DNA from: Psammoneis japonica
Taxonomy: Eukaryota
Length of the DNA: 64,000 bases
NCBI GenBank assembly: GCA_008632985.1
Contig: QPGO01000050.1
Location: forward strand, 124,001 to 188,000
Direction of reading: 5' to 3'
The notes under the pieces were generated by a model. The model was not told the origin of the DNA and did no database searches. It saw only the letters and a list, made by a program, of their open reading frames with translations. Positions 3,842-26,775 of this stretch are shown in pieces. The translations under genes and the position numbers were made by a program. The first letter of the stretch is position 1, and each line of letters opens with the position of its first letter.

Positions 3842-4421
3842 TATCGAGTTGCGTCTTCGAAGTCATTCAAAACAAGTAGTAGTGTGTGTTCCAATGTGTT
3901 CCATAAGTATGTTTCGCTTACGCTCAATCACTAGGCCTATTGATCCGTTATGGCGCTCTCTAGTAGAGGGCCCTTCGACTATTGTCCCTGCCTGTGGTGC
4001 AGTGCTATCGCTTTGCTACAAGTAGCTAGCTCTCAAGTTTGGAAACAGATTGGGTAACTCTTTCTGTTTTGCTCTATCGAGAGGGAAGTTATAGTTGTTG
4101 CCATTAGTTATGGCCACCTACTTTGTAATGGTTTCAGTTTTCAGTTGGTTCTGCTACTCTTCTCTAGAGTCTAGAGTAGGAAGCTGGTAGAGTTCGTACG
4201 ATCAGTGACGGTAGAGCGCTCATACATGCTGCCCGGAATCAATCCCTTCAAGAGTTCAAGAGCTCGTGTGCTCGTCGAGAAAGCTCGTGTGAAGAATCCA
4301 AGGCCGAAAGATTTTTTTCCAGATTGGGACAAGATTGGAAAGATGTTACCGACAACAAACAACGCAACTAAAAGCAATAATAGCACACCATACTACTGTG
4401 CGATGCTGACTACTAGCACTC

Positions 4422-5483
4422 ATGCAATCGGTGTTTAAGTTATTTGTATTAGCTGGACTGTGGTGGTCTGCACACTCGTTCTTAGTCAATGTGCCTTATG
4501 AGCGCGGCCTCCGTTCTAGTCGCCACGAGCGAGGAAAGGAGGAGAGCCCGCGCCTGTCACTTGCTTCTGAAAATGATGAACTTGACACTTGCGAAGGAGA
4601 AAACATATTCATTGAGTATTGCACTGGGTGTCGCTGGCTCCTACGGTCCGCATGGTTAGCACAGGAGTTGCTTACAACGTTCGAGAATGAAATTGATTCT
4701 GTAACTCTAATTCCAAGTCGGCCACCTGCACCTGGTGGCGTCTTTAGAGTTTCACGGAACGGTGGGCTCGTTTGGGATCGAAAGGGAGAAGGCAGATTCC
4801 CAGAGAGCAAGGAGTTGAAACAACGCGTGAGAGACTTAATTGCGCCTCAACAATTCTTAGGACACAGTGACACTGCGACTAGGCAAGAGGAGGCTGCTCA
4901 AGACTGCGACGACTGCGCTGAGGATGAGAACCAGAACTCTGCAGTTCCATCCAGGGGTGACTCGACCACAATTAGTCTCAATGGCGGCGTCTCTCCGAAT
5001 ATTGCAATTTCTTACTGCACCGGATGCCGATGGTTGTTGCGCGCGGCTTGGATTGCACAAGAGCTCTTAGTTACTTTTGACACAGAACTAAATTCGGTGA
5101 CTTTGATTCCGTGTCGGCCTCCATTACCTGGGGGCACGTTTGTGAGTGGCACCAAGTTCGTTCATTTTATGCATTGCAGTATTTGTGAGATTTCTTGTAT
5201 CGTTTTGTGCGTGTCATTCTGATATCTACGTTGACGTTTGTGGCATCAACAGCTAGTAGTGTTGGACGGAAAGAAACTATTATGGGATAGATCTGCTATG
5301 AAGAAGTTTCCGGAGCTCAAAGAACTCAAACAAAAGATTCGTGACGAGATTGCACCTTCACTTAATCTGGGGCACAGTGATGACGATGAGCACCAGCAGA
5401 AGCAAGAAGAAGGCTTACCGATGATGGAAACCATGGATGATGATGAAGCAGAAGAAATGCGCAAGTATTTTGGAGTTATGTAA
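4422..5483 (+). CDS. Rdx (SelT/SelW/SelH-like) family protein with two tandem CxxC domains and a signal peptide; intron 5142-5252
   Basis: Two copies of YCTGCRWLLRxAWxAQELL...GGxF...WDR...FPExKELKQ...LGHSD. The GTGAGT...CAG intron joins the exons in frame. Confidence 0.88.
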
Positions 5484-5712
5484 CGACATTTTTGGATTGC
5501 ATTCGCATGGATCACACTTTGCAATAACTTTTCTAACTATGGAACGTATCGACCAAGTTAATCTTAATCATTTGGTCCCTTACACAGTAATCGTTTCCAG
5601 AATGCCCGTTTACTACATGCCCAATTTAGCCTTCTCACGACTGAGATGCAATGTAAGTTGTACTCCATTTAGGAAGGCCAGCTACATTATTTTGAAACTT
5701 TCATGCTGCACT

Positions 5713-6711
5713 TTACTCTACTTCGAAGACATCGTCGGTGTCAATCGTTCGCCACGATGAGTGCAGGTGTCGGTTGAACTCTTCCAAGGTTTCTCTCACT
5801 TGAGATGTTTGGTACCAGTCATCGAGGGGTTCCGGAAAAGGCGGTGGCGCTGGAAGGGATACAATTGACATTGAGGGATCCATCAGCAACGCTTTCGATG
5901 AGGATTTCTCGATTTTTCTGCGAAGGGAATGTTCGAGACGACAGCATACATGAGCGCGAAAAGAAAGGCAGACAGTAACGATGGAGAACATTTCTTACCG
6001 GCTCGCATATTCTCGCAGTGCGGATCGGTTATCATATCCAGATTCGAGAAGCACGACACCGGAAACATTGTAGCCTCGGAGTAACAGAGATTCCAATGCG
6101 GAGAGTGTGGCACTTATACCGCCTAATTTTCCGTCGCCAACCAAAACTACAGGAGAATAGGGAGCCAAAGGCTCGTAAAGGTCACCCTGAGTGGACCAAC
6201 CCCATGTGCTGTTCGGATTATCGACATCGTCTGGTTCGCCCCGTGCATGATATGACGCGTTGTTGTCGGGCGACGCAGATGAAGGACTTAACACACCTCC
6301 AGCCGTTTCTATCCAAACAGTTGTTTCAGGAACGTCGCTTGCCTCTGGTACATGGGACAGCGTTTTCAGCAGAGAATCTCTCACCTCGTCATCGCTCTTG
6401 GGTAGATTTTCAACACGAGATGCATAGTGAGGCGACGCGGCCGTGTCCCATGAAAAGAGCGTGTGGGTTTTCACTCTGCTTGTCGGACCGACGTGCTTGC
6501 TCACAAACGCTTCATCACTTCCCCCGCATTGCAAGGGCTTGATATAGTGAACAATCGATTCTGAATGCCCTTCTTGAAGAGAGGCTCGAACTAAGCCAGC
6601 CGATACCAAAGTCTTGCCGACATCTGTGTTAGCGCCAAAAACAACATGTGCTCGAAGATGTGATTTATGCAGCAACGTGGAGGATGCAAGCCGCGACACA
6701 CTGCTGGCCAT
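5713..6711 (-). CDS. Dethiobiotin synthetase (BioD/BIO3-type domain); intron 5918-5998
   Basis: GANTDVGKT P-loop, YIKPLQCG, IETAGGVLSP, VGDGKLGGISAT. The GTAAG...CAG intron restores frame into KIEKSSSK...DDVFEVE*. Confidence 0.85.
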
Positions 6712-7296
6712 AGCGAACAAGAACTACGGCAATTAGATGCAAGGCAAACTGAAATACGGTAAGCAGCAGGTTGTATGAACTGTTGCTCTTTCTTGACTCG
6801 ACTTGACGCGTTGATGATGGTGTTGGATCTTGAGATCTGGGATCTTGCCTGCTGTGCGCGAACCACTGCCGCGCGAGTCGTCATGTATGGCGGTGCGACC
6901 AAAAGAGTGCAACCGGTCTGCGGCAGATCCAGGCCTCCAGCTCACTTGCGTCAACGTCTCATCAGTTTGCAGCAGATTGTCTACTGGATGATTGGTGTTT
7001 TTTTCTTTCATTTTCCTGAATCGTGATGGAAGAAGGAACGAAGTGGAATGCGTGCAGGGCGGGAGCGAAAAACCTCCAGTCTTGCCGAAGGCGAAAACCG
7101 CGACCAGTGAGGGACACGTCACACACTTTTTTGCGCCATGGACCGCCATCACCCGACGCGACCCCGCGCCACCGTTGCAACTTCAAAAGCTCTTGCAACA
7201 AAGACAGTTGGTTGCTCTTTCCGTTATCATCGTCATCCTTCTTTGGTCCAAATTTGATACTGTACTTTTCTCCGCTCTTACGCACATGCGTCCAAC

Positions 7297-8103
7297 ATGA
7301 TCCGAATTAAGCTTCTCTCTCTCTTCTCGTCTTGGTTGATGATTTCAGTGTCGGGCTTTCTCGTTGCTCCCAACCGCCCCCATTTTGTACCCACCTCTCG
7401 ACTTTTTGCTGAATGCCAAGCCACTTTTGGAATGGGGTGCTTTTGGTAAGTAAGTTTTGGTGTTTGCTTGCTCTTCTCCGTCACGTCCGCGCAACTTTTT
7501 ACAAATGACCAACCATCGTCCGGATGTAATAGGGAACCGTCTGAATCCCTACTGGAGGTTGACGGCGTCATCGATACTGTAGCAGGATACACTGGGAACC
7601 CAAAGGCAACAAAGCCGCCGAACTATGAGAGCGTTTGCTACAGTCGCGAGTGGGTGGAAGCTGTTCGCGTAACGTATGATGATGAGGAACTGTCGTACAC
7701 AAAACTGTTGGATGCATTCTTTGAAAACCAGAAACCGCAAGGTTCGAGACAGTATGCTTCAATGATATTTTACAGTAATGATGAGGAAAGGAAGATGGCA
7801 GAGGAGTGGAAAGACCAAGATAAAGCTCGTCCAGACGGATTTCGGTCAAGCTATACGGCACTAGAACCGACATCACCATTCTATCAAGCAGAAGGATACC
7901 ATCAGCGGTTTTGGCAGAAGCAACGACCACGAATCGCGTTTGGCATCCTTTTGATTGCGGTGGCATCTGGAATTTTGAATCCTGTTGTCCCAGAAGAGTT
8001 TCAAGAAGCCGTCAAAACAGCCGGCAACGCAGGGTACATTGTTGGAGTGATCGCTCTCTTACTCGAAAGGAAAATCGACACCAAAGTTGTCGAACTACCG
8101 TAG
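7297..8103 (+). CDS. msrA: Peptide methionine sulfoxide reductase A, probably plastid-targeted; intron 7446-7532
   Basis: Exon 1 encodes a signal peptide then FGMGCFW (GCFW catalytic motif, split by the intron). Exon 2 has AGYTG, YESVC, EAVRVTYD, FYQAEGYHQ. Confidence 0.9.
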
Positions 8104-8139
8104 GCGTGATTTTCATTTGCAATAAATAACAGTATACAC

Positions 8140-9388
8140 CTACTCGCCCTTGTAGTTGGGTTGGCGACCTTCTCGGAATGCACGGAGCCCTTCTAAACGA
8201 TCTTGCGTGGGTATCACCTTCTGGTAGCATCGTCGTTCGATGTTTAAAGCATCTTCCATGCAGAGTGCTTCCATTCCTGTGTCAATCGCCTCCTTTGAGG
8301 CGCGAATACCCAATGGTCCGTTTTTGGTAATTTGCAAAGCAATTCTACAGAGGTACAATGGCGGCACGTGTAGATTGTGAACGACAGTGAGTCAGTCTAC
8401 AGTAAACAAGGTGGCAACCCGCGGCAACAAACGCCCATGGCTTCTCAACAGTACGTACTCGATTGCCTTTTTGTCCGCGTCGTCTTCTTCCACATGCTGG
8501 ACGATTCCGTAATCCAACGCAGTTGCAGCATTGATTCGCCGCCCGGTAAAGATGAGTTCCTTAGCTCGAGCAATGCCGATTAATCTTGGAAGTCGCTGCG
8601 TGCCTCCAGCTCCAGGAATAATTGCCAAGGATGTTTCAGGCAGTCCAAAAGTTGCGTTCACTCCAGCAACACGAATGTCAGTCGCCAAGGCGATTTCCAG
8701 CCCTCCGCCTACGGCAACACCCTAACGAAAGCGTGAGGGATCGATTGCGCAGTCTCCAGAGACAAAAGGTGAATAGCTGAAAGCAGTAACAGTGAAACCC
8801 TTACCTCTATCGACGCTATTGTGGGTATTGGTAGCGTGGCTAGTTGATTCATCGTCGTCCGAAGATTTGCTACAAAATCAATTGCTTCTTCCTGGGACAT
8901 TTTGGATCGTTCCTTCAAATCAGCACCTGCGTATCAAGAGTAACCAAAGATGAGGAAAGTTGTCAAAGCACCAAACAAACAGTTCATTGGTGTCTGGAAG
9001 GTGCTTCGAAGAGCCCAACAATGACCAACTCACCTGCTGAGAAAACCTTTTGGGAGGCAGACGTTAACACGACACAGCGTGTGGTCGAGTCGTCCTTCGC
9101 TAAAGCTCTCAAACTTTCTTGAAGTTGTTGAAGCATGATTGAACCCATTGCGTTTGCTCTTTTGGGCCGATTCAAGGTCAAAATTGATATGGTAGGATCC
9201 CTTTCGTGCTGATTTAGCAGAATTTGATGTTGGTCATTTTCGTCCGTCTTTCCGGCAGAAAACCATCGCAGTGATCGAGCAGAATTACACAGAGTTGGGG
9301 GACGAGCAACTACGTCGATGCGGAGGCTCGACTGCAACGCTTTCCCAGCTTTCGATGCGAGACAACTTCTAGTTATACTAAGAGCCAT
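8140..9388 (-). CDS. Enoyl-CoA hydratase/crotonase family, methylglutaconyl-CoA hydratase-like, mitochondrial; multi-exon
   Basis: [80 protein letters not shown] across exons. Confidence 0.88.
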
Positions 9389-10096
9389 TGCGTTCAGGAC
9401 TATGGTATACTTACGGTGCTTTTATGAGTCCTGGGTCCTGGGACAACGATCTATTTGCCGTAACCACTTTCAAGCTTGTGTCATCATTGTCAAGTTCCCT
9501 GTCACGTTTTGTCCGTCGTCCGTCGCTTAGTCTCGCTCGGGTTGTCCTTCGACCGCTGACCGCAGACATTCCTCATGTGTATTTCCGTTTTTAGCGGGGA
9601 ACCATTGCGTCGTCAAATCCGTCAAACTGACTAATATGCAATTGTATTTGCATCGAACATGATGACGGATGATGATGATGTGTGTTCCCAGCCACAAAAT
9701 TTCGGTGCACTTTCACATTGAAGTGAAATCCAAATCCAAATCTTGGCATTACGTATATAAGACCTACGCACAAAACATACCGGTGTTGGAGGGAGTTCAA
9801 AAACAATTAGTTTACTTATGGATCCAGCTGTTTTGTTCAACTTTGGAAATTGCCACACGTCATCGGAATCTGTCAAGAAGCACTAAATATACAATATTGC
9901 CCCTCACCGTTCACGTCACCTTCGGCGAGTGAGTCAGTCAGTCAGTGCACTCGCCGATAAGAATTTTGTCGGCAATCTCAATCTGCGAAATCAGAATCGA
10001 TTTGACGCTTCTGTTTGTGATGCACGAAAACAACCATTTAGCTACTCAGTCTGCGCCTCTTCGTTTAGACTACTTGTCATTTTCTCAAATATCAGC

Positions 10097-11266
10097 ATGC
10101 CTTCCATCCTAGCGTTTTCGGAGAAGGAATGTCGAAGGCAACAGCCCAGCGGCTTTCGCAGATGCACGGAGGGTACGCTTCTCGATGATTCTGCTTTGGA
10201 ATCGAATTGTGCCTGTGACTGTTCCATAACACGCGACATCAAATGCGGGAGAAGGGCGCCATCATCACATATATTGCTGGACTCTTCGGAAGAGTCACGA
10301 CTGTTACTCGCTGTTATGCTGCAAAAGGAAGAAACTGTCTACAGCTGCCCAGACTATCTTTCGCCTAAGTGGCTGGCAGAGCAATCTCAATCTGGCAACT
10401 CGGCGTCGCCAGAACCAACTAAAAACAAGAATAATCGTGTCCCTGCTGTTGACGACTGTACTAATCTCGTGGCGAAACTGGGGTTGAACGCCAGCGGAGT
10501 GATTGCACATGACAAAGCACTTTCAAGGGATCTCAGCAAATCTCACTCTCCCTCAACCATTACCACTTCTTCTGACAACCTTATCGATCTACACGGCCGA
10601 AGCAAGCCTGTAGTCACCCCCAATCTTGAATATGGCAAAAGTTTCTTGGGACCGTGGAGAACTCAAATGGTTGCATGGGCCTTTTCTGTTGCGGACACTT
10701 TTGCTTTGGATAGGGAGCTTGTCCCGTTCGCGTTTCGCTTGCTGGATCGGTATCTGGCAAAGGAAATACAATCATCGGTAGAGGAACCCATCACAAGAGA
10801 AGAATTTCAACTTTTTGCCATGACAGCGCTTTACATTACAGCAAAAACATTGGAACCTACGAGGAAACTGTCGATTGAATCCATCATGGACATGTCACGC
10901 GGTTTCTATTCGGAAGAAGACATTCTCGCCAGCGAAATCCACATGCTTCACAAGTTGGAATGGCACTTGAATCCACCAACTGAGATTGACTTTGTGCGAC
11001 TCTTGATAAACACTACCGGGTTCCATTCAAGTCCACAGTTCATGGACAAGTGTCGCCGAATCACTGAACTTGCTTTACAGGATTCTTCCCTCCTTGCCAG
11101 AAGAGCATCGTGTCTAGCAGCAGCTGCGGTGTTGTATTGCGCTGAACAAGATTGTTCGTACTCCGAAAGTTCCATAAACCAGTTTCTGATGCGAGTAAAT
11201 GATCTTGGAGTCGGTGTGGCCGACACCATGACTGTGTACCGTCGTCTGGAAATCCTCGCTCAATGA
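10097..11266 (+). CDS. Cyclin (diatom-type expanded cyclin)
   Basis: Cyclin box WRTQMVAWAFSVAD...LLDRYL...FQLFAMTALYITAK...E..ML..LEWHLNPPT. Start taken at MPSIL. Confidence 0.85.
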   Translation: MPSILAFSEKECRRQQPSGFRRCTEGTLLDDSALESNCACDCSITRDIKCGRRAPSSHILLDSSEESRLLLAVMLQKEETVYSCPDYLSPKWLAEQSQSGNSASPEPTKNKNNRVPAVDDCTNLVAKLGLNASGVIAHDKALSRDLSKSHSPSTITTSSDNLIDLHGRSKPVVTPNLEYGKSFLGPWRTQMVAWAFSVADTFALDRELVPFAFRLLDRYLAKEIQSSVEEPITREEFQLFAMTALYITAKTLEPTRKLSIESIMDMSRGFYSEEDILASEIHMLHKLEWHLNPPTEIDFVRLLINTTGFHSSPQFMDKCRRITELALQDSSLLARRASCLAAAAVLYCAEQDCSYSESSINQFLMRVNDLGVGVADTMTVYRRLEILAQ

Positions 11267-11397
11267 GAAACTCTTGGCTAGTCTCTCTAGATATAACACT
11301 ACTCGCTAATAATGGTGGTGCTAATAATAATGTTGCCTTACACATTCTAATCACCCGTGCCTTCTTTTTGTTGATTCTCGTACATCCACGGTTCCTT

Positions 11398-13716
11398 CTA
11401 GTTAGCTGCAGGACGACTGAAACGGCCACGGCCGGTGTTCACTACAACAGTCTTTCCACCGTCGACAGCAGGTGCGGACTTCTCCTCACCATCTTCCGAA
11501 ACAGCAACGACAGGATACTTCCTGGTTGCCTGCTCCCACGTGAGCTTGTTATGCACAAACGCAAAGACGACAGAAGTGACTTCGTCCTTTGAAAGACGGA
11601 TCTGAACCATGGAATCCCGTTCACGAAGAGTCACGGTGTCGTCTTTCAGCGTATCAAAGTCGACTGTTACAGCAAAGGGAACGCCCAACTCATCCGCACG
11701 GGCGTATCGCCTACCAAGTGCAGCAGTCGATTTGTCAACCCTGGTGAATAAGTCGCTCTCCATCAAGTCAGCAGCAATTTCGTCAACCTTGTCAGAGAAG
11801 ATAGCAAGGAACGTAATAGGGCAGAGTTAGGCGAGACGGAACCACAACTAATTTGATACAAAAATTCTTAAAAGAAGCCATACAACGTACCACTTCGTTG
11901 ACTTCGGGGCTACTGCTAATGGGGAGAACGGCGCATTTCTGGGGTGCCACCTGGGGGTTGAAGCTCATGACAACACGTTGCTTATCCGCATCGCGCTGGT
12001 AGAAGCTGTGTTCCAGCAAAGAGTACAAGATACGACCCATACCGAAAGACGGTTCAATCACTGACGGGGTGAACTTGATTTCATGAACGACCTTCTTGGT
12101 TTTCTGATAAGTGAACATATCCTTGGTAACTTCAAATCCATCTACCATCGCTTTTCCATCCGTTTCGATAGCTGTGGCAATGGGTTCGAAATCAGCCCAA
12201 TCCTCGGCGAGAGTTTCGAGGGCACCACTCACAGCTCGCTGATCCTGTCGAAAGGCCTTTCCTAATGCCTTACGATCGAGCTTAAGTTTGGCCACGTCAA
12301 TCTCCTTTGGTTTATCCAGCTTCAGAGTGGCCAACATCGGAGTCTTTGTTACCTTTGCGTGAACATCTAAATCATAACACGCCCTATCAGCGTGGCCGAC
12401 GCATTCCACCCATCCATAACTGCTTTGAATTTCCAAGTCCCAACAGTCAGCAGCATAGTGGGCCATTTCAGTCGACAAATGCTGGCGGAACCGAAGTCGA
12501 GACGGATCCATCCCAATACGCTCCATGTACAACTGGGTCCGTGCCATGAAGTACGCGAGGGTTTCGTTATTGATCAATCCGGACTTGACAGCATCGCCTG
12601 CTGTGACAACCTTAGTTTTTCCGCTACCAAGCTGATCGTCTCTACCGAACAATACCAGCTCCTTGTCCTTTACCGACGCAAAGTTGGCATGCGATTTGTC
12701 CTTCGGATTGACAAAGTGCTCAATTTCACCCATGCAAAACTCGCGAACACGCAACAAGCCACTGCGCGGGGCAATTTCTTAAAAAAAAAAGTAAGGAAAA
12801 GGAATATCGTGAGTGCAGCCAACACAAAAGCAGAGCTTCATCCAGCACTTTCAGCTTACCGTTGCGAAAGCCCAAGCCGATTTGAGCGGCGGCGAAAGGC
12901 ATCTTCTGAGCATTTGCATCCAAAAGCCGCTTGAAATTGACAAAGAGACCCTGAGCCGTTTCGGTCTGAGATAACCAACACTGGTACCTTCGGGACCAAT
13001 ACTGGTCTTGAACATGAGGTTAAAGGGAAACGAAGGCGAGAATTCGTTGCCGGATGCAGTCTTGCAGCCATACGCCTTCAACTGTTCATCAAGCTCTGCT
13101 GGGCTGAAAGCATCAGCCTGGCGTTGGATACGTAGATGCACCTCCTTCTCTTCACTAGACAGCGTGGGATTCTTTTCGAGAAAATCGTCAATTGCATCCT
13201 CCAACAGCTTGTCGGCGCGAAAACAGTCCCCGGTTTCAACGTCCTTAACCATGAGATCCGTGAAGCGATCTACATGACCAGACGTCTTCAGAACTACTTC
13301 AGGAGTCAAGCAGGTGCACTCCATTTCCAGCATGCTTTCAGCTAACACGAAATGCTTTCGCCATAAGTCGATCATTGAAGCTTTGAGGGCACAAGCCGGA
13401 GGACCCAGATCGAAGAGGCCCTTCACTCCGCCGTGGATTTCAAACGAGGGTACAACAAACATTTTGCGCAGGATCAAATCATCGAATGCCTTGCGATTGA
13501 ACGCAGGTAAGCTAGAACCGTACTCCTTCTCGATTTGCTCCGCTTTGATTTTGAGACCCTGGAGCATTGTCACCGCTTCACTCACAGCGGCGGCATCAGC
13601 ACCGTCTTTCTTCAACTCCCTGACCCGAGATCCCTGTTTCGTAATCTTGGCATTCAATGCGTCAAGTTCGTCCTGCCACGACGTCGCCTTTTCTCGTTGG
13701 ACGATTCTGTCGTCAT
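11398..13716 (-). CDS. GARS: Glycyl-tRNA synthetase (eukaryotic class II) with N-terminal WHEP domain; two introns and apparent frameshifts
   Basis: [37 protein letters not shown] (broken by a 1-nt loss near 12960), [37 protein letters not shown]. Confidence 0.93.
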
Positions 13717-14265
13717 GTTGGAAGCGAACGCTCAATAATAGTTCCGAAGCTTGCTTACTTAGTAGTAGTCGTCTGAGAGGCGAGAGGCAGCAGAGAGAGA
13801 AGTGAAACGTGAGCCTTCCGTTGTTCATCGGCAACAAAGCAACAAACGCGGCTCCGCCAGCCGAAGCCCGACTGCCGATCACAGCAACATACGGAACAGC
13901 AGTGAGATTCCCAATTCCAAAGTTATTTTTTGGCGGGAAAACATCTCACATTATGTGATAGTAATAGATACCGAAAATTATTTGATACTGCTACATAGCC
14001 ACAGATTTTTCTTTAGGCATTTGTATAGAGCTTTTTGTTGTTTTATAAACTTAGAAAATGGTTAATTAATTAATATTGCGGCCAAATTCAACGGAAAGAT
14101 TAGTTTATTAGATGCTGTTTGAAATTTATGATATTTTGAAATTTTTGTTTTATATACAATTAAGTGCGTATATATATAGCAACGCAGAACGGGATTTGAG
14201 ATCTGATCACATTTCCCGCGTTTTTCGTCTGCTGTTGCAAGTTGCAAACTAAGCACAGTAGAGGA

Positions 14266-16049
14266 ATGAACATGTTACGGCGAATGAGCCGGTCTCAGCC
14301 AAAGGACGGCATCAGCGTGTTGAGTCAGGAGTCTTCCGCGGTGTCATCGGAAGAAAGGGAGTTGTCTGAAGTGTTGGAGTGCGTCGAGAAAGAAATAAGC
14401 GACGCGAGGGCGAAGGGTGTGCACGTCGATCCCAACTGCATTTTGCGAATGACCCGTTCGGCGGTAGAAGCGGCAACGGACGACAAAAAACTCGTGGAAC
14501 TTGATGCATTGCATAAAGTACGAACGGTTGGAGATCATTCCACCCTTGTGGATGTGTTAAAGGAGGACGACGCGTTTCAGCTTAGCATTACAGTGGAAGA
14601 TTCTCCCGAAAGATCGAAGGGGACAAAAAGTCTTGGCACACCCACCAAGATTGATGATGTGTCTTCATCAACATCAGTTGATACGGAATATTCTTCGGGA
14701 TCATTGTCCGTGTCATTCATTGATACGGACTCTCTGCTTGACAGTCAGGCAGGCGGGTGGAAGACCTCCGAGGTAATTCAATCATTCCACCTGATGAATA
14801 TCAGACGTCTGACACTCGGCAGACTCCCGAAACATATTTCAGTGATGACTGCGAAACGGAGGGTGCGCACCGGCAGGAGAATACTGCTATTGAAATAACA
14901 CTTTCTTCTTTTCAGAGAGTCGAGGGTGATGCTCCTGTCGAACCGAAAGAGTCTTCAGAAGAAAGCTGTGAAGTCCTTCTAGCGACGTTTTTGGAAAGCC
15001 TGGAGAATCATGAAATATCGGTGTTGAAGGTTGAAGACCCCGAGCTCGATGAACTAAACATTGCTCTTGCAAATACAGTGGTCAAATCAACGGACGTAAC
15101 GGATGACACTGACTTTGTTTCCACCAACGACTCGAGCAAACAGAATGAAACAAGTAAAGAAACGCTCAACGTTGTATTTGTCGATGACAAAGTCCAAGTC
15201 GTGGACCGTGCGAAAAACAAGTTTGTAGAAATGGATCTCAAACAGCCTGGTGACAGGAAGCATCGTAGAGCTTTTTCTCGAACCTCCTCGAAGAACAAGT
15301 GGAAGCCTCTTGTCTCGATGAAGAAGCTGAACCGACGAAAAAAACGAAACAGGGCCCCCCTTGCTCACGATGCGTCTGAAGTCGATGTTCATGAAGTCGA
15401 TGATGATGAAGTAGAACCTTCCGAAACAGAAGAGTCGTCAGCAAAAATGCATTACGTTGTAACTGTAAGTACTCGCAGCTCTGTTACGGCTCACCAAAAC
15501 CAAACAATTCTCACGCCTCTGTCGCTTCTCGACTTCTTTTAAGTGCCACCACAAGACAAAGAAACCACGCGGCAAAGTCAGGTTTCCACCCATTGAAGAA
15601 GAGGACTACGATCTCCGGGATTCTGAATACGACTCTGATTACAGCGTCGGAGATGATTCGGAAACGGATGAGGTTGATCTCTTTGATCTGTTTGTTGAAG
15701 CGCTCGTCCAAAAGATGGAGCAAATGTGTACCCAGAAAAAATCGAGGGTAACGAGATCTACGAGGAGTCGTCACCGCGACAGGAACGCATGGCACGGTGC
15801 AGTGCTAGAGAGACGACAGCAGTCTGTTATCGACACCTTCGGAAGCAATTCACTTCTATATAAGTCAGGCATTCGTCCAGAAGAAAATCGCTTGGGGCAA
15901 GAGATTCATGTAACGTAGGCTACAATGCTACTAACATCGACGATAATGATAGCAGAGCAACAGGGTCATCCTTGACGGGACAGGACTCTGTTGTTTATGA
16001 TTTGCAGGTTGATGAAAGAACCGGAAGTCCAAAGCTTTTGCGCATGTGA
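14266..16049 (+). CDS. Hypothetical acidic/low-complexity protein, paralog of 27026-28529; intron 15465-15543; apparent frameshifts
   Basis: Shared blocks SVLSQESS..LSEVLE.VEKE, FQLSITV, DKVQV.D..N K.VEM.L, DLFDLFVEAL.QKME, TGSSLTGQ, and the same intron position. Confidence 0.65.
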
Positions 16050-16134
16050 TTGTGTCAGAGTTATCTCTCTACTAAACGCAGAGTTTTTCGGTTCATGAGG
16101 CCATATTATAGAGATTATAGATGGGAGCCTTAAT

Positions 16135-18090
16135 CACTGTAGCTCGCAAAATTCGTAGATGCACAGTTAGAGTCCATTTCATGTATAGATGCCCACAAGG
16201 ACTGGCTGCATTCCTTTCTGCGCTGACTGCATCCCATGCATTGCACTCGTCCAGATGCACCCCATGCTTTTAAGACAGAGACCACTTGGAAATGAAAGGA
16301 AAAATTGAAAAATGACAGGCGTGTAATTTTTTTCGACAATTGGAAAGGAGAGGATGCACAATTGCCAGCCAAGACATGATGAAACTTCTAAAAGGCAGTG
16401 GGTGCCAATTGGGTGTTTGTCCAAACTCGAGAAGATTCTGCTGCTCAAATCCCCAAGGCCAGGCACACATGGATGTCAAAGGCATGCCCAATTTCTGTTT
16501 GATGTGCAAAAGCAAGTTGCACAAGAAAAAGTGGACAAAACATCAGAGCACAGCACAGCTCTGATGGCCATGGGCTCACTCAATTGAAAGACAGTGGGCA
16601 GTGTTGCACTTGGCAACATGAACTTTGTTTGCAAGGAAAATCTCACAAACGGTCAATGCCCCAATTCCACAGGTGCACGCAGATGTGGCAGAGATGGTGT
16701 CGTGCTGCATGGTTCTTCCAGAAAATGCAATGTTTGAATGACAGCAGAGATTTTGGCTGCTGTGTGATTCCCAAGCGAGCTCCTCCAGTTGGTGGCAATC
16801 AGAGAGCAAAACCCCAGAGTTGCCCTCCATCTGGAAATCATTGTTGCTCTTGTTCAGAGCTGATCTGCACTTGACAAGAAGCCTGTGTTCTCAACAAGTG
16901 AAATCTTGACAACATGAATTTTGTGCACATTTGCAATGCAATGATTTTGAATGTTGCTGTGTCAACAATTGAGCCAATCATGAAAGCTGGAGATGACAAT
17001 GAGTGGCACATGCAACTGGCCAGCTGACACAGCTCATTTCCAATGACAATCGCACAAATCGATCTCATTGGCTCTCTTTTTCATTGGCTGCATGTCGCTG
17101 ACAATGCCAACAATTTGATTTGCACATGTTGCAATTTGGGTTTCTGGCAATGTCAGCTTGATGCAGCTGCATGTTCTCATCCTCCACTTTTTTGCTCCCT
17201 TGTCTTTGCTCTTTCCTTTTTTTCTTTGTTCTTCCAGCATCTTTCACTGTCTGCATGACATCTTCTTGTTCTTGGCTGGCTGTGCTGGCACCACCATGTC
17301 ATGCTCCAACTGGCATCTACACTTCAACTGGTGTCATGCTCCCATCACTTGTCTTTCAACAATTGTCAGCTTCTTGTTCTGGTGGTGTGCATGTCGCTCA
17401 TCCTGCAAGGGAGATCAAAGCAATGCCTGCCAGAAGAAATCAGAGAAATCATGAGTTTTGCATGTTTGATTTGGCAGCTCTCTCACAATCATGCTGCCTC
17501 CACTGACACTTGTGCTGCAACATTGCAGCATTGTGTTTCCTGCTTGCACAACTCACTTTAATTTGTCTGGGTGTCATGGATGAGTGAAAGTGCCTGTTTT
17601 TTTGCATTGTTCTGAAATCTGCTTGCTTTTGCAGACACTTCTGATCTTTCATTTTTCTCATTGCTTTTTTTGTTTGGGTGTGTGCAGCCCTTGGTTTTGT
17701 TGGTGCTTTCCCACAATGCATGATTGCACACAGGATGCTTGGGCACATCCTCTGCATTTTGTGTTGTTTTTTGTGTGGCAGCAATGATGCATTTTTTGGT
17801 GCAATGCCAAGCTGCCAGTGGGCTTGGTGGTCATTGTTTGCATCATTTTGCTGGCAGCATTTTTTCAAAAGCCTTTCATTTTGTGTGCTCTCAAAGTCTG
17901 TTAAATTGTTTGGGTTGACTTGAATGAACCAGTCAATTGGTCTTTGTTGTCACAGCATTTCAGTTGGTGGGCCTGTGAGCTGTCATTTGCTCAGCAGCTG
18001 GACATTGAACATTGTTTCAATCACATGCAACACATCATCTTTTGTCAAAGAAGCTTTTTGTGCCATCTCAGTTTTCACAAAATTCAACTT
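16135..18090. mobile_element. Degenerate repeat DNA of unassigned family at the left end of the TE block
   Basis: Switch to TpA/CpG-poor, TG/CA-rich sequence from ~16200. No intact ORF. Begins CACTGTAG, a possible TIR end, but no partner was found. Confidence 0.5.
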
Positions 18091-19950
18091 CTCTAAACTC
18101 CACACTGAAAGCCACCACCAAGCCAACAGCTGCAAGCTGAGGGCACTGGGCTGACAGTGTCCAGTGGTGTGTCCCAGGTGACACTTTCAGAGCTGTGGCT
18201 GAGCATTGCAAGGTTGATCTTGTGGCATTGTGCCCCTGTGTCATGTCATGCAAAAGAGTGGCAGACTTGAACTTGCAAACTCACTCCAGAGTGAAAGGAA
18301 GATCTCCCCATGAGACAGTGCCCACCAAACCACAAAACTGCCCACAGAAGACACTGGTGGCAGCATCTGGTGGACCTGGGGTGAGACTTCAAGAGCTGTT
18401 GTTGTGCATTGCAAGGTTGATCTTGTGGTGTTGTGGCAGCACCATGTCATCTTGTCCCCAAGAACAGGAGCAGACTTGAACTTTCAAACTCCAGAGTGAA
18501 AGAAGGGCCCCATGACAGCACCAACCAACCTGACCATCATTGCAAGATGAGGGCACTTGAAGTGTGTGGTGTGCCCCATGTGACTGCTTTAAGAGCTGTG
18601 CTTGAGCATTGCAAGGTTGATCTTGTGGTGCTGTGGCCTCACATCATGTTGTCCCCAACAGCAGACAGCAGATGAGTCTCCATGCAGAGACCATCACAGG
18701 AGCCAAAAAACTGGTGTCATGATGTCGGTGCTGCATGCTGTCATTGTTCTTGTGAGCCAAGTGGCTTGAAAGCAAACTGCATCGCACAACGCGCATGGAA
18801 CCAAGAGCACACACAATATGTGTGACAAACTAAAATCTTGTTCAAATCCTGTCACCAGCAGACTTGACTTTCCCAACTCCAGGAGTGCAGGGATCCCACA
18901 CCAGTGGCACCAACCAACCCAACAACTGACACCAGCAGAGGGCACCACTGGTTGTCTTTGGTGTGCCCCAGGTGACACTCCAACCATGGTTGGCTGAGCA
19001 TTGCAAGGTTGATCTCATGCGGCATTGTGGCCCTGTGTTGTGCTCTGCCCAATGACTGCTGCAGACTTTGACTTCCAAGCTCCCAAATGCAGCAAGTCTG
19101 ACCAGCCAATCTAACAACTGCAAGCTGAGGGCACTGGTGGTCTGCAGCAGATCCCAGGTGACAGTTTAAGAACTTTGGCTGGATGCTGCAAGGTTGCATG
19201 TTGTGGTGTTGTGGCCCCATGCCACCTTCTCCCCAACAGGAGTGCACAGACTTGAGCTTCCAAGCTCTGGAGTGAAATGTTCCCATGACAGTGCCAGCAG
19301 AGGACACTGAAGGTGTCTGCTGACAGACCCCAGGTGACACTTCAAGAGTTGTTGTTTGGGCACTTCAAGAGGTTGTTGGCACTGCGGCATTGTGGCTTGT
19401 TGTCACCTTGTTCCCAAACAGGAGGAGCAGACTTGAGCCCCCAAACTCCAGAGTGAAAGGACCCCATGACAGTGCCAACCAACCTGACAATTGTTGGGCA
19501 TCATTGCAAGGTTGACCTTGTGGTGCTGTGGCTCCATGTCTCTTCAGCCCCACAGGAGCAGACTTGAACTTGTTCCAAACTCCAGAGTGAAAGGAGCCCA
19601 CCATGACAGCACCCACCAACCTGACAACTGCAAGCTGAGGGCATTGGTGGTCTCTGGTGGAACCAAGGTGGCAGTTTGAGAACTGTGGTTGGATGTGGCA
19701 AGGAAGGTTGATGTTGTGGTGTTGTGGCCACATGTCACCTTGTGCCCAACAGCAGCAGACTTGAACTTCCAAACTCTCAAGTGAAACAACCCTGCGACAG
19801 TGCCAACCAACCCAACAACTGCAAGCTGAGAACATTGGCAGCCTCTGCTGGACCAAAGGCAACAGTTTAAGAGCTGCAGCTGGACATCGCACTGAGGTTG
19901 ATGTTGTGGTGTTGTGGCCCCATGTCACCTTGTCTCCGCCAGGAGCAGAA
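18090..19950. repeat. Degenerate tandem array, about 9 units of ~185-203 bp, with an unrelated ~170 bp interruption (~18680-18850)
   Basis: Recurring GCATTGCAAGGTTGATCTTGTGG-like motif at 18203, 18406, 18606, 18998, ~19183, 19501, ~19700, ~19890. Recurring GCAGACTTGAAC...AAACTCCAGAGTGAAA-like motif in each unit. Confidence 0.88.
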
Positions 19951-19959
19951 ACAAGAATG

Positions 19960-22700
19960 TGTGCACATGGCTCATCATCAAGTCAATCTGGACAGCATGA
20001 CATGTCAACTGCAGCTCCCACTTTCCTCAACAATCCAAGGATGGAGTCAACAATGCATCTTCCTGCCTGTTGGCACAGCAAGGTGGTGCATTCATTCCAG
20101 CTCTGGGCACAATTTGATGTTTTTTTTTCACATTCTCTGCCTTTTTTGCAAATGCTGCCATCTTTGTCAACACAACCTGCTTGCTCTTTGGACTCTGGTG
20201 CTGGAGGTGTGATGTGATGCTTTTTGTCACAGCACATCTGAAAATGATTGGCAACTCTGACAAATTCAGCAATGATGCAGGCCCTTTGCCATTGGGAAAA
20301 GAGCCATTGGTGTGGAAGGTTCCTGTGCTGGTGACTCTCCAACCAACTGATTTCCTCCAACATGTGTTTGTTCTACAGCGGCACCTGGCACAGGCAAAAC
20401 TGACTGCAACAGCGCCGCAGCTCCACGGAAGCTTGGGCTCAATGGGTTGACTGTGTGTGCCAAAAGATTGACTTTGGAGTCTGGATTCCATGACTCAATG
20501 TTCTTGTTGAAGCAAACCCAGAGCACCTCTCAGCAGCCAGCCATTTCTGGCTCCAGCCAGAAGTGTTCCTCAGTTCCACATTCTCTGTGCTGTGGCAAAC
20601 ATCACAATTTTTTCTCAATGTGGCTGTCATGTTCCATGTGGAATGACATGATTTGCAAGTTGCCATGGGGTGGTGTGCGGTTGTTTTTTTGCAACTTCTC
20701 TCAACTTTGTGGCTGCAAAAGTGGCACCAATTCATGATGTGAAGCAGGTGTGACATGTGTGATGAAGAAAATGGCATGCTTGATTTCACAATTGCAGCAT
20801 TTGATCCATCAAAATCAGTGCTCATTGTTCATGTGTGATTTTCTCCCATTGTGGCATCATGTTCCAGCACCTTTTTCCCAGCTTCTGCTCAGCTGCATCT
20901 GTGTCAACAAAATTCTGAACATTCTAGAAAATTGGGTGCCAACTTGTCTCATGACCCCAACTTGTCTCATGACCAGCTGTGCAAAACATGGTGTTGCACA
21001 TCCATCACACTCAAACTCAAGGACCACAATGATTGGCAAGCGCTGTTTGTGGCATCAATCAACATTGTTTGCCTCTCCTGGGTCATGTTGCACAGCAGAA
21101 TCACATTCAATGTGTCGCTCACTTTGACCCATTCAACCATGCATTGTTCAATGACGGAACCATCTCTCAACAAGCTTGAAAGTTCAATGGTCACTTGAAT
21201 GCTGTGGGTTGTGTGTGTTGAGTTAGAGAGCTGTCAGCACCATTTTGGTGGAGCTGCAAGACAGCACGTTGGCAACACTTGTCATGGTGCACCCTCTTTT
21301 GATGTTTTCCAGCAGTGCTTTTTGCAGTTCCCCCACAAAGTCCAGATGGAGCTGATGTGTGTGGCACTTGTTCCCCCAGACAAAAATGCAGCAGGAGCAC
21401 CCCAAAATGCAGGCAATCAAATGGAAGGTTTTCCAACCACATGAACAAATTCTCAACAAAATCAAAACTCACATGATGAGAGATTGCACATTTTGAAGCC
21501 ATTTCAACCCTCATCTGTGGACATTGATCACTGCAGAGAAAATGCCAGAGATGTGCAATTTTCAACAGGCAACCACAATGAAATCATTCAAGAATCAAGC
21601 GACAGAACAAAGCACAGTTGATGTTTGTGAAAATTGTGTGTTGGTGGAAATTGCAGCCACAAGTGTGAAAATCATTGTTGTTGTTCATTGTTCTTCTGTA
21701 AAGTGCAAAAACATCATGTTGCAGATGCCAACATTGCTTCTCACTCCCATGCCAAAATTGCTGCCTGAAGCAGCTTGAGCACCAGCCCCATGTCATGGAG
21801 ATCTGCAGGATGACATTTGGCCATGTTGCCACAACAGTTTTCCAAGAAGCACTGGGGGGGGAGGGGGGGGGGGGGGCACACCTGACAATCACAGCAGCCT
21901 TTCCAGGTGCAGCAGTGGCAACAAGGCATGGCAAAAGCTGATCATCTGTTTGCACAGCTTTTGTTTCCAGGAGGGGGGAGCCAACAGTTGCAGCACCACT
22001 GTCTCCAATTGGCCCAGTGCTGCTTGCTGCCACCTTGCACATGCCTGCTGACATTGCAAGTGGTGCACAATGCCACACACCTTGCTGAGCCTTTTTTTCC
22101 TGCTTTGCTGCTCACAAGTTGCAGAATGGCTGCCACCAGTGCATGCCATCTTTTGCTTTGGAGCCAGCCCTTGCTGCTGCAAAGCAGAAGCAAGGTCATG
22201 TGTTCTTGGAGCTTCTCCAATTCATTTGTGAAATGGCTGCTTCCAAGAGCAAGCGTCTTGCTCCTCTGCTCTGCAATGCTGTGACAAAGGCTTGGTTTCT
22301 CAAAAGCTGTTGAGCTGGCTGAACAAGAAAGGAGCTTCAGCTTCTCATGCTGCTGCACACCAGTTTGGGAATGTCAGGGCACATCATTCCAGGTGCTCAC
22401 CAAAGAAACAAAGGGCCTGCAGCACTTTGTCAACAAAGTGCCATTGTCATTTGTCCTTGAGTTGTTTGGCAGCACAGCACATTTTGGCTCAAAAGTGTGC
22501 TGGGCCCTGCTCTCTTTTTCTCACAGGGTGCAGTCCAGGTGGGTTGCACCAGCACACTCCACGCTCCTTGATTGGCTGCTGCTGTGTGGACACCCCCCCC
22601 CCAGCACCCCCTCCAGCCACAGCAACTTTGCTGTCATGCATTCATTGGTGCCAAGCTGTTCAAAAGTGCCTTTTTCTTGCTCAAAACCACCATGAAGTCT
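19960..22700 (-). mobile_element. Mutator-like (MULE) DDE transposase relic, pseudogenised
   Basis: Ordered minus-strand motifs MLIDATN..SLSVMD (~21060), STDFD....I...MP....H..LLH (~20820), NKNIESWN (~20500), then a Cys-rich possible SWIM remnant (~20080). Limits approximate; 21600-22700 assigned only by contiguity. Confidence 0.65.
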
Positions 22701-22749
22701 GCCAAGCCAAATGGACATCATTGGAGTTTTTTGCTTGGCAAGAGTTGGG

Positions 22750-25700
22750 TGTCTGGGGTGACAGAAGTGGGTGGTGGGTGGTGACTGGTGGTGGGAAAAT
22801 GGTGCACAGCTTGCTGGGCGGTGAAAAGAAAAAAGATTGGCCAATGGTGCAGACAGACAGCTGTGTGGCAGATGCATTGGTTAAAGTTGGGTGTCTTCAA
22901 GTCTGCAGAGGAGTTGCTGATGGTTGGACAAATGGGTGGAGAGGGCGATGATGCCAATGTTGAGGCTGAGGATCTGAGAGGCCCATGGAAGGGGTGCAGG
23001 AGAGATGAGATGGGAGTCACCAAAGTGGTCAGGGGAGATTTTGTTTCCAGGCAATGTTGGCAGCCACTGGCAAGAAGGTTGCGGAAGGTGCCAGAAAGGA
23101 GTTTTGGCATGCTGAAAAAGAGGCTTGGGAGTGGGGCAGATCAGATGGGCTTGTCCAGGGTGGTTTGGGTGGAAGGGGAGGAATGGAGGAGGATTGAGCA
23201 GCGGAGTGACCAAAGAAGAAAACATGAAAGTGGCACCCAATGCCTCCAAGGTGGTTGATGGTGAAAGGAAGAAGAGGTGAGCCAGCATTGTTGGTGGCAT
23301 TGATGATGTTGGAGCAGCAATCTGCGGATGTTGTGCAGCCAAGCGCTTGTCCCATGTGCTGCTGAGGTGAGCCTTGGCAAGTGGGATTTCAGGGGTGGGC
23401 AAACAGGGTGCAGGAGGTGGGGGAGCTGGTGGGCACAGCAACATTGATGGCAATGAACTGGTGTGTGGGGATGGGGCATCAGGAGGAGTGGAGTTGGGGA
23501 TGAGCTGTGCTCCAATGTTGGCAGAGCATTTGAGAGGGGGGTCAGTGAGGAGTCTGGTTGGATCTAGATGTGCTTCTTGTTGACAATTGCAGCACAGAAC
23601 CATTGAGAGGGCCAAGGTTTTCAATGATTGTGTGGAGGGTGTCATGGAGATGGTTTGACAGGGAGCCTTTGCACATTTTGGAGCAGGTGAAAGCATGGCC
23701 ACCACATGGGTTTGGTTGAGCATGGCCACAGGGACATTCGGCGTGGAGAAAATCAGAGGAGATGGTTGGAAGGCAGAGCTTGCAGAGAAGAAGGAGGGTG
23801 AAAAGGGCAGAAGGGAGTCATCAATTGGGTGGGTGAAGTCTTGAGAGGGAGTGAAGGCACAAACTTGCAAGGGGAGAGAGCAGGGATGGAAGAGCTGGTT
23901 GGATGGCAGGGTCTGCAAGAAGTTGAGGGAGAGTGTTGTGTTTGTGATGGTGAAGATGGAGCTGTTGGGAGAGACCATGGAGGTTGTGGTGCTTGATGGG
24001 AGTCAGAGGCATTTGAATGATGGGGAGTTGCATTGGAAGAGGACAGGGGCACAGTGCTTGAAGATGGTGCAGAGGAAAAGGTCAGAGCATGGGTTGGACC
24101 AGGAGCCAAGGGTGGTGGATTGGCTCAAGGGGAGGTGAAAGAGCTGGTTGCCAGTTGGCGGCATTCCGTGTGTGGCGCAACGGATGGAGTGGGCAAGGGA
24201 GGTGAGGATGGGATGGCAACACTGGAAATGTCTTGGTGTCCAATGCTGCCAAGAGAGACTGGGAGGATGGCAACAAGATGGGTGGCAGTTGGAAGAGGTG
24301 CAGTTGTTTTGGTGAGACAAGCAAGAAAAAGGAGGGAGTGGCCAACAATGGCATCCATAAAAGGGGGTGCCCATTCAAAAGGGCTGGGGCAGTTGGTGTT
24401 GTGTTTGAGATTGCAGCAGATGTCCACTGCAAGAAAGTGTGAAATGGACGGCATTGTGCATTTCCGAAAGAAGGCACTTTGAGTTTGTTTGTTGGTTGGT
24501 CGAGTGGTGAGGCAGCGGAGTTGTTTGGCAAAAGTGTTGGCTTTGTTGGCAAGAAAGTCAGCAGCAAATTCAACAGAGCCAATTGGTTGGCCAAGAAAGT
24601 GGATGCTGGCAGCAATCTTGGGTTGTGTGTGTGGGTGGTTGGTTGGGTTGAGGAAAAGCAGGGCTTGATTTGAGGTCTCAGTGTCGGCGTTGGTGGGAGA
24701 GAGCTTGTCAATTGGAGATTGGCTGTTGATGAGTGCAAGGATTTTGGTCTTGGACCTGTTGAGTTTGATGCCACATTGGGGTCCCAAGTTTTTGTGGGAA
24801 CTGTGGGAAAGTGGAGAAAGGAAGAAAGGCATGGGTGTTGTTGATGCAAGACGAGGTGGCCAATTTTGAGTGTGCTGGAAGGCATTGGTGGAGTTTGCCA
24901 TTCTTGATGGGTTTGAAAACACAAGCAAGGATGAGGCAGGAGAAGGCTGGACTTCAAGGACAGCCCTGTGTGAATCCTTTGTGTTGAAAGAAGGAGGGCC
25001 AATCAAGGTGGTGGTCTTGATGCCAACATGTGTTGGGATCTTGGCACAGGATGTTGAAGAGAGGAAGAGTGGGTTTGTGGTTGTCGGAGGATGCAAGGGT
25101 GTTGTGGAAGGCGTTGTGAGAGCATTCGTTGAAACAGTTGGTGAGGTCAAGCAAAACCAGGGCTTTTGCAGGGGTGGTGCCTGGGTCAAAGAAGCATTCA
25201 ATGTCAGTGCAGGTGGTGTTTTATTTGAGGCAGTCCAGGCCGCCTTTGACACCAACACCAAATTGGCTGAACAGGAGGAGGTCAGCTGCAAATTTGGCTG
25301 CCAAAAGGAACATGACCAGTGTTCCAAGAATTTGATGAAGAGCAGTGCAAACACCAATGGGGTGGAGTTTGGAGAGGTTCATTTTGTCTTTGTGAAGGGC
25401 GAGGAAAGAGTTGGGTGCAAAGGTTGGCTTGATCGAGGGCAGGAGGTCAGCAGCAAGGATGAGGTCAAGGAGATGTTTGAAGGTTGGGAGGCAGGGGCAG
25501 GAAGTGGCTGTTGGTGCAGAGCAATGGCAAAGGGCACAGGCTTTGAAGAGGTTGGCAGAGTTGGCAAAGGGGCCTGGTGCTTTGCCGGGGTTGGCATTTG
25601 GCAAGGGCTTTGCAAAGTCAGAAGTTTGTCTGCCAGAGGGGTGCGATGGAAGTGGTGGGTGTTTGCATGGTGGGCACAGCTTTGCCACTGGAGCCATGCA

Positions 25701-26140
25701 TTCTGGAGTGAGAGAAGCAACAGGGAGGGAGGAGGTGGTGCGGGTGCAGGCTGCAGAGAGGTCACTCACATCAGCAGCAATTTAGGCTGAGTGGGTGCAG
25801 AGAATGAGTCGCAGAAATCTGGGGGCTTGTCAGAGATGGTTGGAGTGGGCACTGCTTGAGAAGAATGACAGAGGGAGCAGATGGAGCCATTGCAGAAGAG
25901 GAAAAGGTGTTGGTTGATGATGGTTGAGATTGGGATCTTGGAGTCGGGGCTTTAAGAACAAGGGAAGAGGGCTGAAAATTTGAAGAGAAAAAAGAGTTTG
26001 AAGAAAGGGGTGGAAGAAGTTTGCCAGGATGGGAGGGGCTCATCAGGGTGTTCACAAGTTTGAGATGCATTGAGCATCCACCAGACCAAATGATGAAGGG
26101 CATGGGTGACTTGCAGGTGGGCTGAGGATGGGAGCTTGTG
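22750..26140 (-). mobile_element. Non-LTR retrotransposon relic, RLE-type (CRE/NeSL-like): RT, CCHC knuckle, restriction-like endonuclease
   Basis: KAPGP, LALHKD..KLHPIGV..ALHQI, QFGVGVKGG, LDLTNCFN, GFTQGCP, CINN (=YIDD), GIKLNRSKT, FLGQPIGS, LPVSLGSIG, CPCG...P.GxH.FTC, SANIG...IAINV. Frameshifted throughout. Confidence 0.85.
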
Positions 26141-26164
26141 CCAAAGGGAGGCACAAAAGGGAGG

Positions 26165-26690
26165 ACATGCTTGTTCACAAGTGCGACACAGACCACTGAG
26201 AGGGCCAAGGGTCTCAATGATTGTGCAGAGGGTGCTGTCAGGGAGATGGTTTGACAGGGGGGCTTTGTGCATTTTAGAGCAGGCAAAAGCATGGTTGCTG
26301 CATGGGTCTGATTGAACATGGCCACAGGAACATTCGGCGTGGGGAGAAAATCGGAGGAGATGGTTGGAAGGCGGAGCTTGCGGAGAAGAAGGAGGAGGGT
26401 GAAAAGGGTGGAAGGGAGTTCATTGGATGGGTTGAGTCTTGAGAGAGAGCAAAGGCATGAACTTGCAAAGGGAAAAAGCAGGGGTGGAAGAGCTGGTTGG
26501 ATGTTGGGGTCTCTGCAAGAAGTCAAGGGAGAGTGCTGTGGTGTTTGTGATGGTGAAGATGGAGCCGTCGGGAGAGACCATGGAGGTTGTGGTGATCAAC
26601 AGAGTGTCGGAGGGATTCGAATGATGGGGAGTCACATCGGAAGAGGACAGGGGCGAAGTCTGCTCAGAAGAGTTGGGGGCTCTCTCATTT
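26165..26690 (-). mobile_element. Second fragment of the same retrotransposon family (zinc-knuckle region), matching ~23575-24065
   Basis: Visible nucleotide alignment, e.g. CATGGCCACAGG.ACATTCGGCGTGG and GTGTTTGTGATGGTGAAGATGGAG in both places. Confidence 0.85.
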
Positions 26691-26711
26691 TTTCCCTTCT
26701 CCACTGGCCAG

Positions 26712-26775
26712 TCTAGAGTTAGCTAGCTACTGCTAGCTCTAGCAGCTAGCAGTAGCTAGTGGCTAAAGTAGAGTG
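26712..26775. other. CTAG/TAG-rich island at the right edge of the TE block
   Basis: TCTAGAGTTAGCTAGCTACTGCTAGCTCTAGCAGCTAGCAGTAGCTAGT directly follows >400 bp without a TpA. Confidence 0.7.

Follow-up and report, generated by a model that had tools for sequence, protein, structure and literature searches.

Context-dependent TpA loss in transposon-rich domains of the diatom Psammoneis japonica and its possible origin in adenine deamination

A 64-kb window of the Psammoneis japonica genome (assembly GCA_008632985.1, contig QPGO01000050.1, here C43:124001-188000) contains blocks of decayed repeats from which the dinucleotide TpA has been almost erased. Comparison of young copies of a retrotransposon family related to the one in the window gave substitutions from TA to TG or CA on both strands, with a marked preference for TA followed by a pyrimidine (TAY). 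The reading preferred here, with a probability of about 0.5, is that a host process turns TpA into TpG or CpA after insertion, in silenced, transposon-rich domains, and that its chemistry is adenine deamination. Positions without a contig or locus name refer to the window, which is the whole 64-kb stretch of DNA.

The larger block (16190-26710) is a pile of decayed repeats that includes a non-LTR (long terminal repeat) retrotransposon; dense TpA stops at 16186 and restarts at 26714, with 24 TpA left in between. A second depleted block (1-2410) extends past the left end of the window, and weak repeats of it were found elsewhere in the genome at 68-85%; no family could be assigned to 1-2400 from Pfam or genome repeat matches. 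In both blocks the observed/expected ratio (o/e) of TpA was 0.02-0.06, CpG was low, CpA and TpG were raised, and AA and TT were undiminished; over 17001-26000 the TpA o/e was likewise 0.02-0.06 and the CpG o/e 0.06-0.22. The TA-normal flank at 2600-16186, which carries host genes with TPR, Rdx, cyclin, and WHEP-TRS domains (Pfam), provided a spared control with a TpA o/e of 0.45-0.69.

An earlier note on this DNA had claimed that the surviving TpA are mostly YTAR (R, purine), and had read this as the trace of a mutator that prefers TAY. Direct recounting of 16260-26280 bore out the first claim, with 17 YTAR among 24 TpA (TTAA 8, CTAA 4, TTAG 3, and CTAG 2), and all 15 of the coordinates that the note had quoted were YTAR; the remaining survivors were GTAA (2), CTAC (2), ATAT (1), ATAA (1), and TTAT (1). 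In 1-2400 the ratio was 5 of 6, as claimed, the sixth being GTAG at position 2. The chance level, put there at roughly a quarter, was 24.9% from the base composition of the block (P=2.8e-6 for 17 of 24) and 21% in the normal DNA of the window (444 of 2074 TpA; binomial P=3e-7). Most of block 16190-26710 was recovered in contigs of a short-read run (X1), which may be the assembly's own sample. The CTAC survivor at 20374-20375 (+) reads TG in one X1 contig, among the 40 of 65 X1 differences listed, and thus marks the loss of a TAY site from one allele or strain. A further run (X2) omits introns and gives no cover at 16151-26550, which was not counted as evidence on expression.

The inferred TAY preference was found in substitutions as well as in survivors. 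For the family related to the window retrotransposon, 30 loci were fetched of 46 genome matches, mostly 3-4% apart; 19 young copies were kept, 3 near-duplicates were dropped, and 8 older copies were scored apart. In the young copies, 44-71% of 202 TA-class sites are now TG or CA, while 1-9% of CpG sites and about 0.3-1% of sites elsewhere have been lost; TpA loss thus runs well ahead of CpG loss, and it also occurs where CpG is intact. Substitution of A by G after T was counted in 1225 of 3262 cases in the sense and 783 of 3261 in the antisense direction (0.38 and 0.24), compared with at most 0.014 after any other base. After A the counts were 17/2948 and 56/7221, about 50-fold below those at TA. 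Transversions at TA were nearly nil (A>T 1/3262, A>C 8/3262). CA>CG (28/5143 and 66/4689) was near background, and in old blocks CpG decay would mask any loss of CA.

Because these copies share ancestry and the TA class was defined by their own polymorphism, the rates are not fully independent, and polarity was therefore checked separately. Of 36 TAY-phase sites, 19 had tyrosine as the top residue in homologues from other organisms, compared with 2 of 69 codons fixed as TGY or CAY (Cys/His). Direct evidence came from a TA-normal locus (L205/L207), a fragment of which, about 680 bp long, is present in at least seven depleted blocks (L204, L206, L208-L210, L213, and window 20774-21375); the distribution of the fragment suggests capture by a mobile element. 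In the depleted copy L208, donor TA became CA at 17 sites and TG at 14 and stayed TA at 1 (31/32 changed), and AA was kept at 64 of about 70 sites. In the mutated window copy at 20774-21375, the top five outcomes at the TA sites of donor L207 were CA (15), TG (5), AA (2), TC (2), and GA (2), with about 42 AA retained. The polarity inside the window block, read directly from the donor fragment, is from TA to TG or CA. Since the loss of TA removes tyrosine and creates no stops, reading frames can stay open and become tyrosine-poor, as in L031, L035, L037, L038, L041, and L047, each with an open frame of at least 1253 aa and only 8-16 tyrosines.

The sequence context was quantified with a competing-risk (hazard) model, in which factors are given relative to A at each position. 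At +1, directly 3' of the target A, the factors were 2.9 for C, 4.0 for T, and 1.0 for G; at -2 they were 0.54 for C, 0.64 for G, and 0.43 for T; and at +2 they were 1.85 for C, 1.47 for T, and 1.2 for G. When sites near copy junctions were excluded, the +1 factors rose to 3.9 (C) and 5.1 (T), and T at -3 had a factor of 0.39. The preference is thus best after A (ATAT, ATAC) and worst in T-tract/A-tract settings (TTTAAA). The sense/antisense rate ratio was 0.95 (0.76-1.12, site bootstrap). A C or T at +1 raises the rate 3-4-fold and also picks the strand: TG was the outcome at 72% of mutated YTAY sites (93 sites), 27% of RTAR (16), 51% of YTAR (11), and 55% of RTAY (27), and the same dependence of TG or CA on context held at sites still showing TA. 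A symmetric RTAY model was rejected on its poorer fit (negative log-likelihood 2702 vs 2578 for the strand-specific model). Within TAY, TACG had a factor of 0.59 (0.43-1.02) or 0.63 (0.47-0.83) relative to the others, over 22 contexts.

The rule was then compared with survivors in 39 stretches of 10 kb taken at arbitrary places (390 kb) and split into TA-poor and normal segments. Half of the sampled bases lay in TA-poor segments, where 397 of 729 TpA were YTAR, compared with 1328 of 7737 (17%) in normal segments; survivors in proportion to base composition, which the earlier note had named as the outcome that would refute it, were not found. Survival was 0.48 for TTAA, 0.31 for CTAA/TTAG, 0.14 for GTAA/TTAC, and 0.13 for CTAG, and lowest for ATAT (0.002), and TTTAAA was undepleted (47 vs 32). 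YTAR as a survivor rule is therefore enriched genome-wide but incomplete, CTAG faring no better than GTAA/TTAC. The order TTAA > CTAA/TTAG > CTAG arises because T at -2 or -3 and A at +2 protect further, and when the hazard model derived from the family was applied to genome survivors, it ranked their 10 NTAN classes with a rho of 0.96. Survivors at YTAC, sorted by the +2 base, numbered 46/477 for G, 28/480 for C, and 13/586 for T.

A 14.2-kb tandem triplicate (C127:136543-179238), about 1% diverged and in part an older copy of the same retrotransposon family, replicates the TAY context rule. Of its 153 differing sites, 104 were TA-type (93) or TG/CA (11), and change was seen at 77 of 326 sites with a +1 pyrimidine and 24 of 302 with a +1 purine (odds ratio 3.6, P=6e-8). 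The spread into host-type genes differs in extent between the units: an open reading frame (ORF) with a RING domain has 15 TA changes in a single unit, and two of the three have changes in a methyltransferase ORF. Duplication alone is no trigger, because parts of the triplicate remain identical. Few TA events were found in another pair of similar stretches, C41:504451-519761 and C317:42513-57883, which are 93-99.6% alike, are possibly haplotypes, and include a two-domain dCMP deaminase gene.

Apart from this copy-specific spill into the RING and methyltransferase ORFs, TpA loss was confined to foreign or mobile DNA and host genes were spared. Mutated sites cluster regionally, and no strand coordination between neighboring sites was detected in any of five distance bins (z -1.5 to 0.9). 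Five 5'-truncated copies adjoin TA-normal DNA. Of their 30 sites lying no more than 150 bp from the junction, only 5 were lost, compared with a fraction of 0.75 for the corresponding positions of full-length copies; the sparing fades by 300-800 bp and was absent in three copies with a TA-poor or gap flank (11/13 lost). At 3' ends beside normal DNA most copies were likewise spared (1-3 of 19 lost), with the exceptions of L051 (12/19) and L057 (9/19), and the 3' end of L054, which lies beside depleted DNA, lost just 6 of 19. The process takes place in the chromosome, after insertion, and follows the domain rather than the sequence of the element, as the uncoordinated strands, the sparing of about 150 bp beside normal DNA, and the spill into neighboring genes all indicate. 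The domain would be CG-methylated heterochromatin, judging by the CpG decay found in the same places and by work on Phaeodactylum, in which transposable elements are CG-methylated by DNMT5.

For the preferred reading, a deaminase would be recruited to heterochromatin and would convert adenine to inosine in duplex or transiently opened DNA, and replication would then copy the inosine as if it were G. Access may be hindered by flanking A-tracts and by a purine stacked on the 3' side of the A. Hits are single and independent, each step occurring once because TG or CA leaves the other strand without TA, and a slower CpG decay in the same domains likewise ends in TG or CA. The strict 5' T and the pure A>G change match the action of TadA8e on genomes. 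Several observations weigh against adenine deamination, in addition to the shared ancestry of the copies described above. The TadA-type deaminases known to act on DNA require single strands and would tend toward strand-coordinated clusters, and none were seen. A crude test, which bears on a plain TadA or ADAT2 enzyme, gave no preference for hairpin loops (rho of -0.16 between residual rate and predicted unpairing, n=340). Nor did the loss of TA correlate with that of CpG over 12 full copies (rho 0.34, P=0.28). The altered base, A or T, is indistinguishable from sequence. Finally, no deaminase found in a six-frame search of the genome stands out from ordinary-looking tRNA and nucleotide types.

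The ambiguity of the altered base leads to the strongest alternative, since A>G in TAY, read from the opposite strand, is T>C in RTA, and the altered base may be T. A thymine-modifying enzyme might act at R-T-A in silenced DNA, with a product that pairs with, or is repaired to, C; JBP/TET-like oxidation gives 5-hydroxymethyluracil and 5-formyluracil. T>C in RTA describes the same double-stranded event, the strongest neighbor effect is adjacent to either base, and duplex-acting dioxygenases would yield uncoordinated hits. Loss of about 70% of sites nearly without transversions, on the other hand, seems high for a miscoding lesion, and this explanation is considered unlikely; no Tet_JBP match was found in the genome, in a search whose controls were silent too and which is therefore uninformative. 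Rather less likely is a prior mark on the TpA adenine in silenced DNA, N6-methyladenine or another, that is then deaminated or miscopied. The dinucleotide-strict, two-strand, domain-bounded pattern resembles a methyltransferase mark, CpG offers an analogue in the same domains, and DNMT5 methylates diatom elements at CG. N6-Methyladenine, however, is not known as a strong A>G mutagen; an uninformative search gave no MT-A70 match in the genome. Gap filling by a Y-family polymerase during heterochromatin repair (Pol eta at WA, or Pol iota, which places G opposite T) appears improbable, slightly more so than a mark. Pol iota-like and Pol eta-like genes are present in the genome and Pol eta hotspots are WA, but AA>AG, the check that the earlier note had proposed, was at background, about 50-fold below TA, which disfavors Pol eta. 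A>T was seen at 1 of 3262 sites, whereas the two commonest errors of Pol iota are A>G and A>T, and strand-coordinated patches were not seen. The polymerase explanation could be saved only if a TpA-specific glycosylase supplied one-base gaps.

Two further explanations have very little probability left. Changes made before insertion, by editing of the transposon RNA or by errors of reverse transcriptase, would fit the A>G signature of ADAR/TadA on RNA, and two A_deamin genes exist; this explanation is largely refuted by the equality of the strands, by sparing that tracks each copy's own junction, and by host-type genes beside a copy that are changed in one duplicate and not in another. The YTAR bias could also have come from base composition, selection, or assembly error, given that TAA and TAG end translation and that TTAA is known to serve as a target site, so that YTAR could be kept or added otherwise (as in TTAA target-site duplications). 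The rule was, however, measured from substitutions and predicts the survivor ranks, and X1 contigs recover the block; survivor bias is thereby refuted for the main effect, and may account for a small share of the TTAA excess.

The six-frame searches for adenine deaminases and other enzymes ignored introns and can miss divergent enzymes. The deaminase genes present are TadA-like, ADAT2-like, dCMP/guanine/RibD-type, and two A_deamin. The TadA-like protein (L102) has Asp at the corresponding place of E. coli TadA and a hydrophobic N-terminal extension, and is only a candidate for activity on DNA; the ADAT2-like protein (L105), also a candidate, has Asn at a place matching amphioxus ADAT2. This Asn does not single out L105, because it is common among ADAT2 proteins (PMC10354150). 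The second A_deamin gene, of the ADAT1/ADAR fold (L116/L115, C79:344500-345900), is related at about 42-66% to many proteins, diatom-labelled or unnamed, which carry only PF02137; such wide occurrence among diatoms counts against it as the agent, since 51 of 53 related elements are without TpA loss. In the ESM Atlas, one A_deamin candidate matched only generic A_deamin clusters and the other had no match. C79 also carries a single open frame (L104:313-1785, -) in which a nucleobase-deaminase domain is joined to a DIOX_N/2OG-Fe(II) dioxygenase; it probably serves small-molecule metabolism. The Pol iota-like Y-family polymerase gene (L119:1192-2355, -) adjoins a TA-poor stretch.

TpA hypermutation itself has already been described: Mettrop et al. 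(bioRxiv 10.64898/2026.01.13.699255) report de novo A:T>G:C changes at TpA only in integrated nucleocytoplasmic large DNA virus (NCLDV) and virophage DNA of Bigelowiella natans. The de novo rate there is raised about 1000-fold and is active in some lines only, TpA-depleted coding sequences are enriched for transposase and reverse-transcriptase (RT) domains, and ADAT2 is proposed as the enzyme (same preprint). The two cases share the change from TpA to TpG or CpA, on both strands, by transitions only, in foreign or mobile DNA, and the diatom process works like the B. natans hypermutation. New here are the diatom case, in which about half of a 390-kb sample is affected with near-complete erasure, the measured edges of the transposon domains, and neighbor effects outside the TpA itself; the main text of the preprint mentions neither wider context nor diatoms, and its supplement could hold context data. 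No other account of TpA hypermutation, and none in a diatom, was found in the mostly non-subscription literature searched. Tentatively, and with less confidence than for deamination in P. japonica, diatoms and chlorarachniophytes might share a heterochromatin-guided, distributive adenine deaminase of duplex DNA that acts at NTAY, a "reverse RIP" defence that is patchy across lineages and leaks into neighboring genes.

Among systems that act on adenine in DNA, TadA8e editors give genome-wide A>G off-targets at TA and, like bacterial TadA, favor a 5' T. The compatibility with a TadA-like enzyme that the earlier note had proposed holds for the strict 5' T and is weakened elsewhere, with TACG at about 0.6 of other TAY, CA spared, and no loop preference seen. 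A plain TadA reading is further opposed by the editors' preference for YA, including CA, which is near background here, and by the UACG preference of bacterial TadA, the corresponding TACG being disfavored; the editors are, moreover, engineered and act on exposed single strands. A 3' pyrimidine preference belongs to the general picture of TadA editors, and a literature search did not confirm it. Amphioxus ADAT2/3 is a natural eukaryotic case of A-to-I conversion on DNA, with a matching Asn in the ADAT2-like gene here; as described, its preferred contexts are GAA and TCG, it favors hairpin loops, and C is deaminated as well (PMC10354150). This is unlike the present context and adds to the points against deamination by such an enzyme. 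Fungal repeat-induced point mutation (RIP) resembles the process in its dinucleotide-specific transitions in repeats that spread into flanks, and is opposite in polarity, making TpA from CpA. Pol eta mutagenesis at WA in somatic hypermutation likewise gives A>G at TA, and differs in that AA is spared here and neither patches nor transversions were seen. ADAR-type editing favors a 3' G and affects one strand only, in contrast with a +1 G factor of 1.0 and a strand ratio of 0.95.

A first metagenome scan found nothing. Among 53 related elements in metagenome contigs, two (L152 and L175) were TpA-depleted. In L152 the TpA o/e was 0.02 in the RT part with CpG at 1.0, its ORFs of 706 and 398 aa have no tyrosine, and YTAR made up 11 of its 24 TpA; over its first 3500 bases, a limit set post hoc, the share was 9 of 12. 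L175 had a TpA o/e of 0.21 and YTAR at 7 of 11, and the other 51 elements had YTAR at 1663 of 10085. Neither L152 nor L175 had a DNA match in the P. japonica genome, which does not prove their absence. The YTAR rule thus probably extends, patchily, to other organisms.

The context of strict T, a 3-4-fold effect of +1 Y, A best at -2, protection by T-tracts and +2 A, and low TACG constitutes a pass/fail fingerprint for candidate enzymes, which helps to focus the search for a natural editor of A to G in DNA and lets the B. natans machine be compared. Transposon ages and tyrosine content are badly distorted in such genomes. If the preferred reading is true, a natural adenine deaminase of duplex DNA would matter for the evolution of genome defence and for base-editing tools.

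Within block 16190-26710, the decayed non-LTR retrotransposon lies on the minus strand at 22880-26600 (bounds approximate). It was recognized from ORF pieces, has 39 genome matches and a relative (L030) with RVT_1, and appears by eye, from intact relatives, to be of the restriction-like-endonuclease type. An internal duplicate (23576-24050 and 26170-26654) is 83% alike, with 12 TG/CA doublets among the differences. Self-alignment showed an imperfect repeat array at 18100-19950, with a spacing of about 190-200 bp and copies that often differ by TG/CA doublets; its summed contig depth reaches 8439, compared with about 60 nearby, and it is a high-copy satellite-like family. Exact look-up of two window proteins gave no match for either, and a flanking inositol-phosphate synthase gene in the window had its best matches in diatoms. 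In TA-normal DNA at 49924-51522 (+) there is a C5 cytosine methyltransferase gene whose best solved relatives are bacterial, of HhaI type, and it is followed at 51792-53711 (+) by a gene resembling pentameric ligand-gated ion channels (Neur_chan_LBD).

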